A stretch of DNA of 64,000 bases, taken from Escherichia phage FL31. Location: the sequence record PP400782. One strand, 5' to 3'. A model generated the notes under the pieces. It did not search any database. It saw nothing but the letters and a program-made list of their open reading frames with translations, and was not told where the DNA came from. A program made the translations under genes and the position numbers. Below are positions 2,382 through 41,932 of this stretch, in pieces; the first letter of the stretch is position 1; each line of letters begins with the position of its first letter.

Positions 2382-4698
<2,317 letters not shown>

Positions 4699-4725
4699 AA
4701 ATAAAGCAAATTAAGAGGAATTAAA

Positions 4726-6708
4726 ATGGCACTTCTCTCTCCGGGCGTTGAGCTCAAAGAAACTACCGTACAGAGTACTGTAGTTAATAACTCCACTGGT
4801 ACTGCTGCCCTGGCTGGAAAATTCCAATGGGGACCTGCATTCCAGATTAAACAAATCACCGATGAGGTTGCGTTGGTTGATATGTTTGGTACTCCTAACA
4901 CAGACACCGCAGATTATTTCATGTCTGCTATGAACTTCCTTCAATATGGTAATGACCTTCGTGTTGTACGCGCAGTTGATCGTGATACTGCTAAGAACTC
5001 ATCTCCTGTGGCAGGAAACATTAATTTTACTATTTCTTCGGCTGGCACCAACTACAGAGTAGGTGATAAAGTTGTAGTTAAATATTCTACAGATATTATC
5101 GAACCAGACGGTGAAGTTACTTCAGTTGATTCTGACGGTAAAATTTTGAATATCTTTATTCCTTCAGGTAAAATTATCGCTAAAGCGAAAGAAATCGGCG
5201 AATATCCTGAATTAGGTTCAAACTGGACTGCCGAAATGTCTGGGTCTTCTTCTGGTCTGTCTGCAGTAATTACTATTGATTCCGTTGTAATGGATTCTGG
5301 TATTCTGTTGACTGAAGTTGAAACTTCAGAAGAAGCTATTACTTCTCTAACTTTCCAAGAATCTATTAAAAAATATGGTGTCCCGGGTGTAGTTGCTCTT
5401 TATCCTGGTGAACTTGGCGACCAGCTTGAAATCGAAATCGTATCTAAAGCAGACTATGACAAAGGTGCTTCAGCCCAGTTAAAAATTTATCCTGATGGTG
5501 GTACTCGTGCATCTACTGCTAAAGCAGTGTTTGGATATGGCCCACAAACTGATGACCAATACGCAATTATCGTTCGTCGTAACGATGCTGTAGTTCAGAG
5601 CGTAGTTCTTTCTACTAAACGCGGTGAACGAGATATTTATGGTAGTAATATCTTTATTGATGATTTCTTTGCTAAAGGCGCAAGCAATTATATTTTCGCT
5701 ACTGCACAAGGTTGGCCAAAAGGTTTCTCTGGTGTAATCAAACTGAATGGTGGCTTATCATCTAATGAAACGGTTGACGCTGGTGATTTAATGGAAGCTT
5801 GGGATTTGTTTGCTGACCGTGAATCTGTTAATGCGCAGTTGTTTATTGCCGGTTCTTGTGCAGGTGAATCTTTAGAAGTTGCTTCTACAGTTCAGAAACA
5901 TGTTGTAGCAATTGGTGATTCTCGTCAAGATTGCTTGGTTCTTTGCTCGCCTCCACGTGCAGCTGTAGTTGGTATTCCTGTTAATCGTGCAGTTGATAAT
6001 CTGGTTGATTGGCGTACAGCGTCAGGAACTTACACTGATAATAACTTTAATATAAGTTCTACTTATGCTGCTATTGACGGTAACTATAAATATCAATATG
6101 ACAAATATAATGACGTGAATCGTTGGGTTCCATTAGCTGCTGATATTGCTGGTCTTTGTGCTCGAACAGACAATATTTCTCAGCCTTGGATGTCTCCAGC
6201 CGGTTATAACCGTGGACAAATTCTTAACGTTATTAAGCTTGCAATTGAAACTCGTCAAGCACAACGAGATCGTTTGTATCAGGAAGCTATTAACCCTGTT
6301 ACTGGTACCGGTGGTGATGGGTATGTTCTGTACGGCGATAAAACTGCCACTTCTGTTCCTTCGCCATTTGACCGTATTAACGTTCGTCGTTTGTTCAATA
6401 TGGTTAAAACGAACATTGGTTCAGCATCTAAATATCGCCTGTTTGAATTGAACAACGCATTTACCCGTTCTTCTTTCCGTACAGAGACTTCTCAATATCT
6501 ACAGGGTATTAAAGCTCTTGGTGGTGTATATAACTTTAAAGTTGTTTGTGATACTACCAATAACACCCCAGCAGTTATCGACCGTAATGAATTTGTAGCT
6601 ACTTTCTACTTACAACCTGCCCGCTCGATAAATTATATTACGTTGAACTTTGTAGCAACAGCAACTGGTGCTGATTTCGACGAACTGATTGGTGCTGTAG
6701 GTGGTTAA
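4726..6708 (+). CDS. 18: contractile tail sheath protein gp18
   Basis: 660 aa, MALLSPGVELKETTVQSTVVNNSTGTAALAGKFQWGPAFQIKQ... matches recalled T4 gp18; TATAAATA 28 nt upstream. Confidence 0.95.
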   Translation: MALLSPGVELKETTVQSTVVNNSTGTAALAGKFQWGPAFQIKQITDEVALVDMFGTPNTDTADYFMSAMNFLQYGNDLRVVRAVDRDTAKNSSPVAGNINFTISSAGTNYRVGDKVVVKYSTDIIEPDGEVTSVDSDGKILNIFIPSGKIIAKAKEIGEYPELGSNWTAEMSGSSSGLSAVITIDSVVMDSGILLTEVETSEEAITSLTFQESIKKYGVPGVVALYPGELGDQLEIEIVSKADYDKGASAQLKIYPDGGTRASTAKAVFGYGPQTDDQYAIIVRRNDAVVQSVVLSTKRGERDIYGSNIFIDDFFAKGASNYIFATAQGWPKGFSGVIKLNGGLSSNETVDAGDLMEAWDLFADRESVNAQLFIAGSCAGESLEVASTVQKHVVAIGDSRQDCLVLCSPPRAAVVGIPVNRAVDNLVDWRTASGTYTDNNFNISSTYAAIDGNYKYQYDKYNDVNRWVPLAADIAGLCARTDNISQPWMSPAGYNRGQILNVIKLAIETRQAQRDRLYQEAINPVTGTGGDGYVLYGDKTATSVPSPFDRINVRRLFNMVKTNIGSASKYRLFELNNAFTRSSFRTETSQYLQGIKALGGVYNFKVVCDTTNNTPAVIDRNEFVATFYLQPARSINYITLNFVATATGADFDELIGAVGG

Positions 6709-36638: not shown

Positions 36639-36663
36639 ATAATACCATACTATTCGTAAAGCA
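36639..36663 (-). promoter_or_regulatory. MotA-dependent middle promoter for gene 31
   Basis: Minus strand reads TGCTTTA, 12-nt spacer, TATTAT, about 30 nt upstream of the gene 31 ATG. Confidence 0.55.
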
Positions 36664-36665
36664 TA

Positions 36666-36962
36666 TTACATAAGAAGCAAACGTTCTACCGGAGTACCAT
36701 CAACCGAAATTACTTTATCAAGACGGAAAGAACGCCACTGACCTAACTTGGTATCGAATGCTCGAACTGATTCACGAGGTTCATAACGAACTTCTGTTGC
36801 CGGATTGTTATTTTCATATTTGACTTCAAGTTCATCGCGGGAAGCAAACATAGTACGAACATCACCGTTAGCCTTTTCAAATACAACACAATGAACGCCT
36901 ACAGACAGAATAGTTTTAATACGTTCACGAAGAACCATAGTTTCTTGTTCAGTTAAAATCAT
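36666..36962 (-). CDS. hypothetical protein (98 aa from first ATG; T4 31.1/31.2 region)
   Basis: The track start is GTG overlapping cd; first ATG lies 1 nt after the cd stop. Confidence 0.45.
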   Translation of the reverse strand: MILTEQETMVLRERIKTILSVGVHCVVFEKANGDVRTMFASRDELEVKYENNNPATEVRYEPRESVRAFDTKLGQWRSFRLDKVISVDGTPVERLLLM

Positions 36963-36963
36963 A

Positions 36964-37545
36964 TTATTCACCACAAAAGTTTCGGATTTGTTCCCAATTC
37001 AGAGAACGAAGATTATTACGAGAGTACTGAATTACTTCAATACCAGCTTGTTTAAGAATGTCTGCCCAATTTTCAGGAGACCGGTCATATAATTCTGCAT
37101 ATACAACCTTTTTAATGCCTGACTGTGTGATAGCTTTAGTGCAATCAGGACATGGAGAAAGTGTCGTATACAACGTAGCACCTTCAATAGAATTACCTTT
37201 GCGAGCTGCAAATAAAATTGCATTCAGTTCCGCATGGATTTCGTTATTAGCAGACCATGCACTATGAGCGGCCCGATGTTCTTTAGCCAAAACAAAATTA
37301 TCTGCCCGTCCAAATGCTGTAGTGCCTTCTTTATGACCAACAACGATGACCGGGCTTGGTTTATTCTTCAACCAGCCGTTTTCGGATGCATGTTCGCAAC
37401 AGTTAACGCCACCTGAAGGAGAGCCATTATAACCTGTAGAAATAATGCGTCCATCTTTTTCAATGACTGCGCCAACTTTCCATGAACAACATTTTGATTC
37501 TTGAGAAATCAGATATGCAATCTGAAGGTATGTGCTAGCTTTCAT
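36964..37545 (-). CDS. cd: dCMP deaminase
   Basis: 193 aa; zinc-binding HAELNAI and PCPDC motifs; near-identical to recalled T4 Cd. Confidence 0.95.
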   Translation of the reverse strand: MKASTYLQIAYLISQESKCCSWKVGAVIEKDGRIISTGYNGSPSGGVNCCEHASENGWLKNKPSPVIVVGHKEGTTAFGRADNFVLAKEHRAAHSAWSANNEIHAELNAILFAARKGNSIEGATLYTTLSPCPDCTKAITQSGIKKVVYAELYDRSPENWADILKQAGIEVIQYSRNNLRSLNWEQIRNFCGE

Positions 37546-38537
37546 TATTGAACCTTATTAATATAAGTTAACAGCTCTTTAGTTTGTTCCCAACTGATGC
37601 ACGCATCGGTAACGGAAACGCCATAGGACATATTATCAGAAATTTTTTGATTTCCTTCATGTAGGAATGATTCTATCATAATTCCTTTGACCAAATCATT
37701 AGCTGCTAAATTTTTACCAATACCAATTTGATTGCTATAATGCCCAGCAGCGTTTGCATGGCTACAGTCAACCATTACATAATGATTCAGACCTACTGCC
37801 CTTGCTTTGTTAGAAGCTTCTTGAATATCAGAAGAATGATAGTTCGGACCGTTGGTCCCACCACGCAATACGATATGCGTATTCTGATTACCTTCAGCTT
37901 CAACAATGCCTACAGTACCATCGACGTCCATACCCATATACCGATGAGGCCAGGCGGCACTATACATCGCGTCTGTAGCTACTTTAATAGAACCATTGGT
38001 TGCGTTCTTGAAGCCTACGCACATCGGTAGACCTGAAGCAATTTCACGATGTGTCTGGCTTTCAGTAGTACGGGCGCCAATAGCAACCCATGAGAAAATA
38101 CCAGAAAGATACTTAATCGTGAATGGGTCTAATACTTCAGTTGCTAATGGAAGTCCCATACGTAGAAGTTTACGACACAATGTTCGTGCAACTATAAGAC
38201 CGTGGTTCATATCAAAACTTCCGTCAAGATATGGATCATTTACAAGACCTTTCCAACCTACGGTAGTTCGAGGCTTTTCAAAATAAACGCGCATCACTAA
38301 CAGAACATTAGGAAGACGAGTTTGAAGTTCAGCCAGACGTTTGCCGTATTCAACAGCAGCAATAGGGTCATGAATTGAACAAGGACCTACAACAATAAGT
38401 TTGCGTGGGTCTTCACCGTTCATAATCGAATTAACTTGTTCGCGATGAGAAGCCACTTGTGATGCGTAAGCTTCCGACAAAGGAATAATCTCAGCCAGTT
38501 CTTTTGGAGAAATAAGTTTTCCGACGACAGGTAACAT
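37545..38537 (-). CDS. 3-deoxy-D-arabino-heptulosonate-7-phosphate (DAHP) synthase, class I (AroF/AroG/AroH family)
   Basis: 330 aa; conserved blocks GPCSIHD, MRVYFEKPRTTVGWKGL, AIGARTTESQTHRE, CVGFKN, VLRGG, VDCSHAN, ESFLHEGNQ, YGVSVTDACISWE align by eye with E. coli AroG and AroF over the full length; AAGGA SD; stop overlaps the cd ATG as TAATG. Confidence 0.9.
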   Translation of the reverse strand: MLPVVGKLISPKELAEIIPLSEAYASQVASHREQVNSIMNGEDPRKLIVVGPCSIHDPIAAVEYGKRLAELQTRLPNVLLVMRVYFEKPRTTVGWKGLVNDPYLDGSFDMNHGLIVARTLCRKLLRMGLPLATEVLDPFTIKYLSGIFSWVAIGARTTESQTHREIASGLPMCVGFKNATNGSIKVATDAMYSAAWPHRYMGMDVDGTVGIVEAEGNQNTHIVLRGGTNGPNYHSSDIQEASNKARAVGLNHYVMVDCSHANAAGHYSNQIGIGKNLAANDLVKGIMIESFLHEGNQKISDNMSYGVSVTDACISWEQTKELLTYINKVQ

Positions 38538-38657
38538 AACAATCCTTAGGAGATATAAACAGATTCTGATTCAACAATACCTTTAACCGGATTAGACAGG
38601 CTAAGTTGGTAGTGCTCAGATTTATGACCATTCTCGATAGTAATGAGATAGCTCTCA

Positions 38658-38894
38658 TTATAGTGTTCCATATACTCGAGTTGCTTCAACAAGACCATCA
38701 CTGCCTAATTTAAGATTAGTAATTTGGTCACCATCTTTAGGATTAACGATTATGAGAAAAGAACGTGGAGATTCTTGAATAACTCGTAATGTTGCATCTT
38801 GGAAACGTTCAGACACTTTATTGATGAGTGCTTGAGCAAATTCTTTTACTTTAATCTGAAATTCGTGTACTGTAATTGGGTTTTCACTTAGCAT
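38658..38894 (-). CDS. hypothetical protein (78 aa; cd.x region)
   Basis: ATG with GAGGAAA SD; early promoter at 38921-38950 upstream. Confidence 0.5.
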   Translation of the reverse strand: MLSENPITVHEFQIKVKEFAQALINKVSERFQDATLRVIQESPRSFLIIVNPKDGDQITNLKLGSDGLVEATRVYGTL

Positions 38895-38920: not shown

Positions 38921-38950
38921 ATCATATCACAACTCTACGGTGTTGTAAAC
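38921..38950 (-). promoter_or_regulatory. early promoter for the cd.x-DAHP synthase-cd transcription unit
   Basis: Minus strand GTTTAC, 18-nt spacer, TGTGA-TATGAT-GACTC; upstream of the ORF starting at 38894; no promoter found closer to the DAHP synthase gene. Confidence 0.55.
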
Positions 38951-39630: not shown

Positions 39631-40716
<1,086 letters not shown>

Positions 40717-41579: not shown

Positions 41580-41932
41580 TCTGAGAGCTTCCTGAGGTCT
41601 TCTGCAAAGGAATCGAAGGACCTGTTGATTTGTTTTTCGACCAATCCTGGTTTACTTGCCACCACGTTCTTCTTCTTCGAATCCTTACGGAGCTTTTCAT
41701 TTTCAGCCTTAAGTTGGTCAACTAAAACACGGTTCTTATAAGTCATTTCTTCGATTGACTGATATTGAACCTTGAAGTCGTCTAATACTTTAGCATTGTT
41801 TTTAGCAGTCTCTTTTACTGTAGCCAATTCAGTATTCAGCGAATCGACTTTATGGTTCAGAAATGCTATTGTTACAGTAGCAACAACCGCAAAAGCTGCC
41901 ACTACAATATATGATGCATTTACTTTAAGCAT
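41576..41932 (-). CDS. inner-membrane spanin (Rz-like i-spanin)
   Basis: 118 aa; N-terminal transmembrane helix (YIVVAAFAVVATVTIAF) followed by charged coiled-coil; immediately upstream of the o-spanin. Confidence 0.7.
   Translation of the reverse strand: MLKVNASYIVVAAFAVVATVTIAFLNHKVDSLNTELATVKETAKNNAKVLDDFKVQYQSIEEMTYKNRVLVDQLKAENEKLRKDSKKKNVVASKPGLVEKQINRSFDSFAEDLRKLSE

Follow-up and report, generated by a model that had tools for sequence, protein, structure and literature searches.

Escherichia phage FL31, a T4-like (Mosigvirus) coliphage, carries a gene for a type I-alpha 3-deoxy-7-phosphoheptulonate (DAHP) synthase whose active site is intact and whose inhibitor pocket bears six substitutions specific to a clade of phage enzymes. 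The reading that we favour, with modest confidence, is that this is an early-expressed, probably feedback-insensitive and catalytically competent enzyme that would feed the host shikimate pathway. DAHP synthase is the flux-controlling step of that pathway, and amino-acid biosynthesis genes are unusual cargo in virulent coliphages. A 64,000-nt stretch of record PP400782 (hereafter, the window) was analysed, in which the gene and its immediate surroundings are arranged as follows.

36964..37545, minus strand: dCMP deaminase gene (cd), 193 aa, with its start codon inside the TAATG shared with the DAHP synthase stop
37545..38537, minus strand: DAHP synthase gene (3-deoxy-7-phosphoheptulonate synthase, type I-alpha, AroF-like), 330 aa, ATG start
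38538..38657, minus strand: leader of 120 bp from the cd.2 stop to the DAHP synthase start, part of a 1,113-bp cassette
38543..38547, minus strand: Shine-Dalgarno sequence AAGGA, read from the sequence, 5 nt 5′ of the DAHP synthase ATG
38658..38894, minus strand: cd.2 homologue (DUF7320, phrog_1504), first gene of a likely cd.2-DAHP synthase-cd transcription unit

The junction between the DAHP synthase gene and cd reads ...GTTCAATAATGAAAGCT..., where the stop codon TAA (37547-37545) shares bases with the cd ATG (37545-37543) to give TAATG. The initial annotation of this DNA had described the 330-aa minus-strand frame and its overlap with cd, and both were found as described. In phage ST2, a 41-aa ORF is annotated within the leader region between cd.2 and the DAHP synthase gene. 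T4 has only the small ORFs cd.1-cd.5 at the same locus and no gene of the DAHP synthase type, as had also been stated. T4 cd.1 occupies the equivalent slot between cd.2 and cd, but encodes an unrelated 112-aa hypothetical protein; because of this lack of relationship, the slot is regarded as a variable insertion point.

Profile searches assigned the protein to the DAHP synthase family. The Pfam DAHP_synth_1 profile (PF00793), the search proposed in the initial annotation, matched far above chance with E = 5.7e-75 and 252 bits (cutoff, 25.5), and the scores for NCBIfam TIGR00034 (aroFGH) and NF009395 were 427.5 bits against a cutoff of 173.2 and 455 bits against 343, respectively. The NCBIfam equivalog cutoffs for AroG (364 versus 568) and AroH (386 versus 463) were not reached by the phage protein. 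Its best solved relative was E. coli AroF (6AGM, 353 bits), and the identities to AroF, AroG and AroH were 51%, 47% and 43%. Thus, the earlier comparison with AroG and AroF had recognized the family correctly but missed that AroF, not AroG, is the closest E. coli isozyme. The phage enzyme shares its family, fold and active site with the Tyr-sensitive AroF (PDB 6AGM/6AGL), and then with AroG and AroH, and has Gly at AroG position 211 as in Tyr-type enzymes; it differs by two small internal deletions. The AF2 model (pLDDT 92.3) was superposed on AroG 8e0u by Foldseek with a TM score of 0.96 and an rmsd of 1.7 Å, and the predicted structure has the type I-alpha architecture, namely a (beta/alpha)8 barrel with an N-terminal extension and an extra beta-hairpin formed by strands 198-203 and 209-214.

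The metal ligands of the phage protein are C53, H260, E289 and D311, corresponding to AroG Cys61, His268, Glu302 and Asp326, and the KPRTT loop comprises residues 88-92. In a MAFFT alignment of E. coli AroG, AroF and AroH with four phage homologues, C61, H268, E302, D326, R92, K97, P98, R99, T100, R165, K186 and R234 were invariant, so that the catalytic Cys, His, Glu and Asp stayed aligned under a rigorous method. The PEP and erythrose-4-phosphate (E4P) ligands (R92, K97, the KPRT(T/S) loop, R165, K186 and R234) were kept, and across 24 phage-clade and 95 cellular sequences no metal, PEP or E4P ligand varied. Every class-I motif block listed in the initial annotation was present, with profile, alignment and AF2 model in agreement on an intact active site. 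The most likely reading of the sequence is that the ORF encodes a catalytically competent DAHP synthase, which would convert PEP and E4P to DAHP and Pi. It is very improbable that the specificity has instead shifted to arabinose-5-phosphate (A5P) or another phosphosugar, as in KDO8P synthase, with a different 3-deoxy-ulosonate as the product, to be used in modifying DNA or the surface. PF00793 includes KDO8P synthase as well as DAHP synthase, the phiC120 genome paper loosely ties the domain to lipopolysaccharide synthesis (PMC8022965), and the gene co-occurs in part with a phage A5P isomerase. However, neither the DAHP synthase-type KPRTT loop nor any E4P or PEP ligand varies, the aroFGH equivalog cutoff is passed, the predicted fold matches AroG at the TM score given above, and none of the six clade-specific changes described below (0/6) is in the active site.

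When a fixed difference was defined as at least 90% on each side, the phage clade differed from its 95 cellular relatives at only six positions: P150I, Q151K, D155G, S180P, F209Y and T223A (AroG numbering). AroF, AroG and 88-95 of the 95 cellular relatives have P, Q, D, S, F and T at these positions (AroH has Gly at 150), whereas the phage residues are I, K, G, P, Y and A, located at I141, K142, G146, P171, Y200 and A214 of the FL31 protein. The Ile and Pro assigned in the initial annotation to the AroG P150 and S180 positions are therefore confirmed as Ile141 and Pro171. The six residues are fixed or nearly so (23-24 of the 24 sequences) over a range of 56-100% identity, and the neighbouring pocket positions 215 and 221 vary within the clade. 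Four of the six coincide with the ten feedback positions known from the literature (hypergeometric p = 5e-6; 1e-4 in a restricted universe).

In AroG, P150L is fully resistant to feedback, S180F and F209A/S are resistant, Gln151 has a role in inhibition, the side chain of Ser180/181 binds the inhibitor, and the D155/D156 salt bridge stabilises the inhibitor site (PMC9529685). Yeast ARO4 Q166K is also feedback-resistant (PMC7513737; PMC5879953); Q166 aligns ungapped with AroG Q151 and phage K142, and Q151K is the same change as ARO4 Q166K. Compared with the engineered or selected alleles AroG P150L, D146N, S180F and F209A/S and ARO4 Q166K, the phage clade is naturally substituted at 150, 151, 180 and 209; unlike the laboratory alleles, its changes are several, combined and naturally fixed, with Ile and Pro in place of Leu and Phe. 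For Ile, Lys and Pro at 150, 151 and 180, a direct precedent exists for Q-to-K only, in yeast, and this difference from the engineered Leu/Phe alleles counts against a simple transfer of their phenotype. The distant homologue of Aeromonas phage HJ05 is also altered at 150, 151, 155, 180 and 209.

The N-terminus ahead of Cys61 has 48-52 residues in the phage clade and 58-63 or more in the cellular enzymes, a shortening by 8-12 residues (approximately 9 relative to the E. coli isozymes), and because of this the region of AroG Asp6/Asp7 is lost. In feedback-regulated enzymes of the AroF/AroG type, P150, Q151, D155, S180 and F209 and an N-terminal lid are conserved in the inhibitor site, whereas the phage clade throughout has I, K, G, P, Y and a truncated N-terminus. 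The extreme N-terminus (AroG Asp6/Asp7, AroF N8/I11) is presumably part of inhibitor-site function, and a 2014 study by Zhang et al., going by its title, is said to concern its role. The literature searches found no citable text on AroF N8K or on deletion of I11. From the six pocket substitutions and the missing N-terminal strand, we infer that the phage enzyme most likely ignores feedback by Tyr, Phe and Trp, that is, it is probably feedback-insensitive. The initial annotation had raised escape from aromatic feedback as a possibility, and the six-position signature, the match to ARO4 Q166K and the N-terminal loss strengthen it considerably.

Strict conservation of the pocket, rather than drift, fits retuning to another ligand as well as a lock in the active state. 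If the pocket were retuned, I141, K142, G146, P171, Y200 and A214 would bind a different effector, such as a phage nucleotide or sugar metabolite, chorismate or prephenate, or a phage protein, and DAHP synthesis would be tied to the infection programme. We consider this unlikely, although drift would be expected in a lost site, whereas the six residues are fixed next to variable positions; in addition, Lys at 151 places a positive charge where the inhibitor carboxylate is normally located, and the regulatory beta-hairpin is retained in the predicted model. Weighing on the other side, no candidate ligand is known, the clade lacks the N-terminal lid by which the site is completed across the dimer, and the conservation is equally explained by holding the active conformation, several of the residues being near the catalytically important 144-165 segment. 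Feedback insensitivity remains our preferred reading of the pocket.

The gene is already known and catalogued: it matches phrog_5045 and is present in 212 deposited phage records, in many of which it is named aroF or aroG. Phage vB_EcoM-172859UKE1 encodes a protein 100% identical to that of FL31, and many other copies are at 99.7% identity. The phage proteins formed one monophyletic clade with a bootstrap of 96/100, the order pseT-DAHP synthase-cd is conserved in at least four genera (Mosigvirus, Winklervirus, Bragavirus and Marfavirus), and divergence of the gene tracks that of the flanking core genes. GC is 0.412 and GC3 0.29, like the neighbours cd and pseT and unlike E. coli aroF at 0.518. 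A monophyletic clade at one conserved locus, between pseT and cd, in four or more genera indicates that the acquisition was old and AroF-like, in agreement with the earlier view that the gene was an old acquisition and not contamination, for which the ameliorated composition also speaks. A recent donor was ruled out, since even the closest cellular proteins share only 52-54% identity and come from scattered taxa. Candidates for independent acquisition by other phages were rejected as well: the contig named Acinetobacter phage MD-2021a is bacterial and contains cobS/T/U, and the two 'Bacteriophage sp.' scaffolds from the gut, which are unverified, fall in a different subfamily. Aeromonas phage HJ05 is the only credible second phage context. 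A host-type gene in a virulent phage, with this number of records, conserved synteny, phage-like GC3 and clade support, qualifies as an auxiliary metabolic gene.

The proposal that the gene plays no part in infection, whether as a neutral passenger, as a decaying remnant or as an assembly contaminant, draws on its absence from T4 and from several Mosigvirus phages (listed below), but it is hardly tenable and was already disfavoured. The gene is intact in approximately 139 Mosigvirus records at ≥95% identity and in at least four genera, its catalytic residues are kept, its composition is phage-like and its locus syntenic, and no variation was seen at 119 of 350 positions in a phage clade whose members span 56-100% identity. 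Within Mosigvirus, dN/dS was 0.12 in the comparison with phage ST2, a value of low power based on only 7 differences.

The 1,113-bp cassette is bounded by a 13-nt direct repeat and is absent from RB69 and approximately 10 other Mosigvirus records. The two copies of the repeat are located as follows.

38649..38660, minus strand: upstream copy TAATGAGAGCTA, containing the cd.2 stop and a cd-like start
37536..37547, minus strand: downstream copy TAATGAAAGCTA, 1,113 bp away from its upstream counterpart, containing the DAHP synthase stop and the cd start that it overlaps

The gene was absent from RB69, JK36, JK42, moha, ECO111 5-P and several mar005P1-named assemblies; it is dispensable and accessory, a point that the initial annotation had missed. 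Phages that lack it, among them T4, RB69 and other members of Mosigvirus, do well. Spontaneous loss within one isolate was considered for mar005P1, a name under which some records have the gene and others lack it, but identity in the flanks is only 97.8%; the records are therefore different strains and provide no evidence for deletion in a stock.

The gene had also been described as lying beside nucleotide-metabolism genes. This holds for cd but not for nrdB, approximately 5.6 kb upstream, or for td and frd, approximately 10-11 kb upstream, although the direction of transcription is shared. Adjacency to cd is thus the sole basis for coupling DAHP synthase to nucleotide metabolism. It would fit a role in substrate removal, in which an irreversible drain on E4P (and PEP), rather than the DAHP made, would matter, drawing the non-oxidative part of the pentose-phosphate pathway towards pentose phosphates that supply nucleotides and the ribulose-5-phosphate to arabinose-5-phosphate branch for arabinosyl-hmC (ara-hmC) DNA; we regard such a role as quite improbable. 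The ara-hmC pathway begins from the pentose-phosphate pathway (PMC13326640; PMC6024577), the gene is in the early nucleotide-metabolism region, and most lineages with DAHP synthase (Mosigvirus, Winklervirus, Bragavirus, and Enterobacter, Erwinia and Kanagawavirus phages) also encode the ara-hmC arabinose-5-phosphate isomerase. However, the flux logic is hypothetical, DAHP synthase is lacking in approximately 57 Acinetobacter phages that have the isomerase and the arabinosyltransferase, and approximately 25 Klebsiella Marfavirus records have DAHP synthase while Klebsiella accounts for at most 3 records among the isomerase matches (outside the ten commonest names). RB69, itself a phage of the ara-hmC type, lacks the gene. 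The carriers of DAHP synthase had resembled the set of ara-hmC phages. Obligatory membership of the ara-hmC pathway (Aat, A5P isomerase, NTP-transferase) was nevertheless rejected, because tblastn with the RB69 isomerase and arabinosyltransferase showed each gene set without the other, and because of the absence from RB69; the link is therefore kept only as a weak, flux-level alternative. A broader version, in which the six substitutions mark a re-engineered regulatory site, or an E4P/PEP drain, that ties shikimate entry to the nucleotide and ara-hmC economy of the phage under a virus-specific allosteric logic, is likewise doubtful in our judgement.

Expression was considered from two candidate signals upstream of the gene.

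38921..38949, minus strand: sigma-70-like promoter candidate TTTACA-17-TATGAT (with TG) between cd.3 and cd.2, by consensus match only
39913..39937, minus strand: MotA-box/-10 middle-promoter-like site inside pseT, upstream of the run cd.4...DAHP synthase...cd, by pattern match only

The first coincides in position with the T4 early promoter Pe133295. Sigma-70 promoter and terminator scans gave counts no higher than the shuffle expectation, and the sigma-70 scan was therefore used only for positional comparison with the annotated T4 early promoter. The MotA-box pattern was observed 15 times against 3.7 expected, and an Rfam scan of the whole window gave no matches.

The favoured reading, a feedback-insensitive enzyme serving the host shikimate pathway, can be outlined as follows. 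An ancestor of several T4-like genera would have acquired an AroF-like gene once, with vertical inheritance at the pseT-cd locus thereafter. The gene would be transcribed with the early/middle genes cd.2 and cd and translated from its own ribosome-binding site, its stop overlapping the cd start. The enzyme would make DAHP from host PEP and E4P, and a remodelled pocket together with loss of the N-terminal strand closing the inhibitor site would let it ignore Tyr, Phe and Trp. Carbon would then keep flowing into the remaining host shikimate enzymes after shutoff of host gene expression, and Tyr, Phe, Trp and possibly chorismate-derived cofactors would be sustained for the burst of phage protein synthesis. 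The window ORFs encode 3.95% Tyr and 4.24% Phe, both exceeding the values of the E. coli proteome. As an accessory gene, it would be useful in some conditions and non-essential. One entry enzyme raises flux only when the downstream host enzymes and the E4P supply are not limiting.

Cyanophage auxiliary metabolic genes of central carbon metabolism, such as transaldolase talC and CP12, are likewise host-derived, reside in lytic T4-like phages and during infection redirect flux around the pentose-phosphate pathway; they concern other enzymes and other hosts and, unlike the phage DAHP synthase, are experimentally supported. The DAHP synthase of Klebsiella phage KLB31 has been proposed as an auxiliary metabolic gene for aromatic amino acids (PMC11845039). 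Given this discussion, phrog_5045 and the 212 phage records, the novelty of the gene had been overrated in the initial annotation. phiC120 ORF64, KLB31, Shf125875 'AroG', 'aroF' of the O157 typing phages and phrog_5045 are the same gene family at the same locus, with no difference at the gene level. Our literature search found no functional, biochemical or genetic study of any phage DAHP synthase, and the published mentions contain no analysis of the allosteric site, of presence and absence or of origin. What is new here is the residue-level regulatory inference, together with the monophyly, the fixed substitutions and the dispensability.

Presence/absence polymorphism (RB69, JK36, JK42 and moha against approximately 139 carriers) and a defined 1,113-bp cassette make the question of fitness directly testable. 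If the enzyme is naturally feedback-insensitive, it would be an evolution-tested deregulated DAHP synthase for metabolic engineering, and a clear example of end-product control in a host anabolic pathway being overridden by a virus.

The type I-alpha DAHP synthase ORF (hereafter DAHPS), a member of the enzyme family responsible for the first step of aromatic amino-acid synthesis, occupies 37545..38537 (minus strand) and encodes 330 aa. It ends in a stop codon overlapping the start codon of the downstream dCMP deaminase gene cd (Pfam dCMP_cyt_deam_1, phrog_174) as TAATG in the sequence, and upstream lie homologues of T4 cd.2, cd.3 and cd.4, followed by the polynucleotide kinase gene pseT. The initial annotation had described the ORF, the overlap and the upstream cd.x genes accurately. 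DAHPS belongs to a long minus-strand early region holding frd, td, nrdA, nrdB, denA, rnlA, alc, pseT, cd.x, DAHPS and cd. Directly downstream of cd, the gp31.1 homologue (36666-36974, minus strand) matches Pfam WYL_2, an Sm-like SH3 beta-barrel (E = 3.7e-9); the name 'tail fiber protein' that it bears in some relatives looks wrong.

The gene and its reading as an auxiliary metabolic gene are already known. DAHPS matched phrog_5045, 'phospho-2-dehydro-3-deoxyheptonate aldolase' (E = 5.9e-182), in the category 'moron, auxiliary metabolic gene and host takeover'. By tblastn, 212 deposited phage records carry it, many annotated as aroF, AroG or DAHP synthase; identity is at least 95% in 139 and 100% in one, vB_EcoM-172859UKE1. 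A DAHPS domain in phiC120 ORF64 has been mentioned in passing (PMC8022965), the copy in Klebsiella phage KLB31 has been put forward as an auxiliary metabolic gene serving aromatic amino-acid supply (PMC11845039), and no experimental work on a phage DAHP synthase was found in the literature searched. The window is of Mosigvirus type (RB69/JS09-like), with 97% identity over 7 kb to phage ChristianSchoenbein. The ST2 record (OM982647), a 171-kb T4-like genome 97% identical to the window, carries the taxonomy line Guernseyvirinae; Kagunavirus, and looks misclassified.

The protein matched Pfam DAHP_synth_1 (E = 5.7e-75) and passed the NCBIfam aroFGH equivalog (427 bits, cutoff 173) and the subfamily NF009395 (455, cutoff 343); it fell below the cutoffs of the isozyme-specific AroG and AroH NCBIfam models. 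The nearest solved structure by sequence is the Tyr-sensitive E. coli AroF (6AGM, 353 bits), with Neisseria DAH7PS and E. coli AroG ranking behind it. An AlphaFold2 model (mean pLDDT 92.3, input alignment of 32 sequences) superposed on AroG structures with TM 0.96 and 1.7 A, and has the additional beta-hairpin that is usual in type I-alpha enzymes. In an alignment of DAHPS with E. coli AroG, AroF and AroH (all full-length) and with four homologues from phages, there was no variation at the metal ligands C61, H268, E302 and D326 (AroG numbering), at the PEP ligands R92, K97, R165, K186 and R234 or in the KPRT loop. These residues were also invariant over a larger set of cluster representatives, 24 from the phage clade and 95 cellular. 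Profile matches, modelled fold and invariant ligands thus bear out the annotation as a DAHP synthase with an intact active site, and argue that the enzyme is very probably active.

The feedback-inhibition pocket was compared between the 24 phage-clade representatives and the 95 nearest cellular proteins, a position being counted as fixed at ≥90% on each side. Only 6 of 350 positions showed fixed differences, P150I, Q151K, D155G, S180P, F209Y and T223A in AroG numbering (phage I141, K142, G146, P171, Y200 and A214). According to a review of feedback-resistance engineering (PMC9529685), AroG P150L and D146N give full Phe resistance, Gln151 participates in inhibition, inhibitor binding involves the side chain of Ser180/181, a D155/D156 salt bridge stabilises the inhibitor site, and S180F, L175D, L179A, F209A/S and V221A are resistant alleles. 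Four of the six differences fall among ten literature feedback positions (hypergeometric p = 5e-6; p = 1e-4 when the universe is limited to the 105 positions that are conserved in both sets), and D155 is a fifth with a literature role at the inhibitor site. The yeast ARO4 allele Q166K is a feedback-resistant allele in use, and since ARO4 aligns ungapped through this region as AroG + 15, it equals the phage Q151K exactly. In addition, the phage-clade N-terminus is 8-12 residues shorter than that of the cellular enzymes; the missing segment is presumably the one that contributes Asp6/Asp7 to the neighbouring subunit's inhibitor site in the AroG-Phe structure. The six pocket-biased changes, the ARO4 match and the shorter N-terminus substantially strengthen the proposal, made from the first reading, that the enzyme may escape feedback inhibition. 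Because the new pocket residues are strictly conserved, there is room for an inhibitor site that is retuned rather than dead.

Positions 150, 151, 155, 180 and 209 are likewise altered in a distant homologue from Aeromonas phage HJ05, and HJ05 may represent another lineage of phages in which these pocket positions have changed convergently. HJ05 is a non-T4-like phage of 79 kb and 60% GC; its DAHP synthase (387 aa, at 3899-5062, among unannotated genes) has a long N-terminal extension and the pocket residues A150, H151, P155, P180 and V209.

Mosigvirus, Winklervirus (Serratia X20), Bragavirus (Proteus phiP4-3) and Marfavirus (Klebsiella PWKp18) share one conserved gene order: pseT, small ORFs, DAHPS, 0-2 small ORFs, cd, gp31, rIII. 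The phage proteins are monophyletic (96 of 100 NJ bootstraps), and their between-genus identity of 59-68% parallels the divergence seen in cd, pseT and gp31 on either side. Composition resembles that of the neighbours (GC 0.41, GC3 0.29; E. coli aroF GC 0.52), and the closest cellular proteins, just 52-54% identical, are scattered taxonomically. Together these features indicate that an AroF-like (Gly211) enzyme was acquired once, long ago, and has been passed on vertically since then. In T4, the slot is occupied by the unrelated gene cd.1. A contig labelled 'Acinetobacter phage MD-2021a' (CAKLQH020000056), in which aroF lies beside cobS, cobT and cobU, is evidently bacterial chromosome, and makes DAHP synthase look more widespread among phages than it is.

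In RB69, cd abuts cd.2 and DAHPS is missing; the difference from the window is a 1,113-bp segment, the cassette, consisting of a 120-bp leader and the gene. An imperfect direct repeat of 12-13 nt marks its edges:

38660-38649, minus strand: upstream repeat copy, TAATGAGAGCTA, cassette boundary
37547-37536, minus strand: downstream repeat copy, TAATGAAAGCTA, cassette boundary

A second, independent pair, LR027391 and OZ035759, differs by this indel and has the repeat too, so that the boundaries are common to two independent carrier/empty pairs. The empty junction occurs in about 11 Mosigvirus records (RB69, JK36, JK42, moha, ECO111 5-P and several mar005P1-named assemblies) versus about 139 carriers, and the gene is therefore accessory. 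The upstream repeat copy continues to resemble the cd 5′ end for about 24 nt (about 15 of 24 matches, counted manually), as if the cd start were duplicated there. Two small minus-strand ORFs are found at this edge: 51 aa from GTG at 38546-38701, in and upstream of the leader (phage ST2 has a 41-aa version annotated), and 55 aa at 38491-38658, which begins at the cd.2 TAATG, overlaps the DAHPS start and has a cd-like N-terminus (MRAIS...). As for RB69 cd, NC_004928 annotates 169 aa, versus 193 aa in the window and the same length (582 bp) in T4; relative to the window, its 3′ end (about 5668-5760) switches frame and back, probably a Sanger-era sequencing error like that detected by Thomas et al. 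in ORF053c/052c.

Candidate expression signals are as follows:

5 nt upstream of the DAHPS ATG, minus strand: ribosome-binding site AAGGA, read from the sequence
38949-38921, between cd.3 and cd.2: candidate promoter TTTACA-17-TATGAT, pattern match only
39937-39913, minus strand: MotA-box/-10 pattern inside pseT, pattern match only
36639-36663 and 41906-41931, minus strand: other examples of the MotA-box/-10 pattern, pattern matches only

T4 has an annotated early promoter at the place matching 38949-38921. The T4 middle-promoter-like pattern TGCTTNA-N11-13-TANNNT matched 15 times in the window versus 3.7 expected, a count reached by 0 of 100 shuffles, and 14 of the 15 matches are on the minus strand. 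No Rfam family reached its gathering score in the window (1-64000).

Many DAHPS carriers are phages of the type with arabinosyl-hmC (ara-hmC) DNA modification, a pathway that draws on ribulose-5-P. A5P isomerase matched 275 records and arabinosyltransferase 211. About 57 Acinetobacter phages have both without DAHPS; DAHPS occurs in about 25 records of Klebsiella Marfavirus, and Klebsiella lies outside the ten commonest names among the A5P isomerase matches, hence at most 3 records. These mismatches, and RB69 without DAHPS, rule out DAHPS as a required member of the ara-hmC module. A flux-level tie, in which the E4P drain by DAHPS pulls carbon into pentose phosphates, has a low probability.

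We propose an active DAHP synthase, expressed in the early/middle phase and probably insensitive to feedback, through which PEP and E4P would continue to enter the shikimate enzymes already present in the host after host shut-off. This flux would serve the need of an AT-rich phage proteome for Tyr, Phe and Trp (3.95% Tyr and 4.24% Phe in the window ORFs), and possibly chorismate-derived cofactors, making the gene conditionally beneficial and dispensable. Confidence is high for the identity of the enzyme, moderate for its deregulation, and moderate to low for aromatic supply during infection as its purpose; we lean slightly towards the whole chain from enzyme through deregulation to aromatic supply. 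What is added here to a known gene is its allosteric signature at residue level and the polymorphism of the cassette, and together they make a clean experiment possible.
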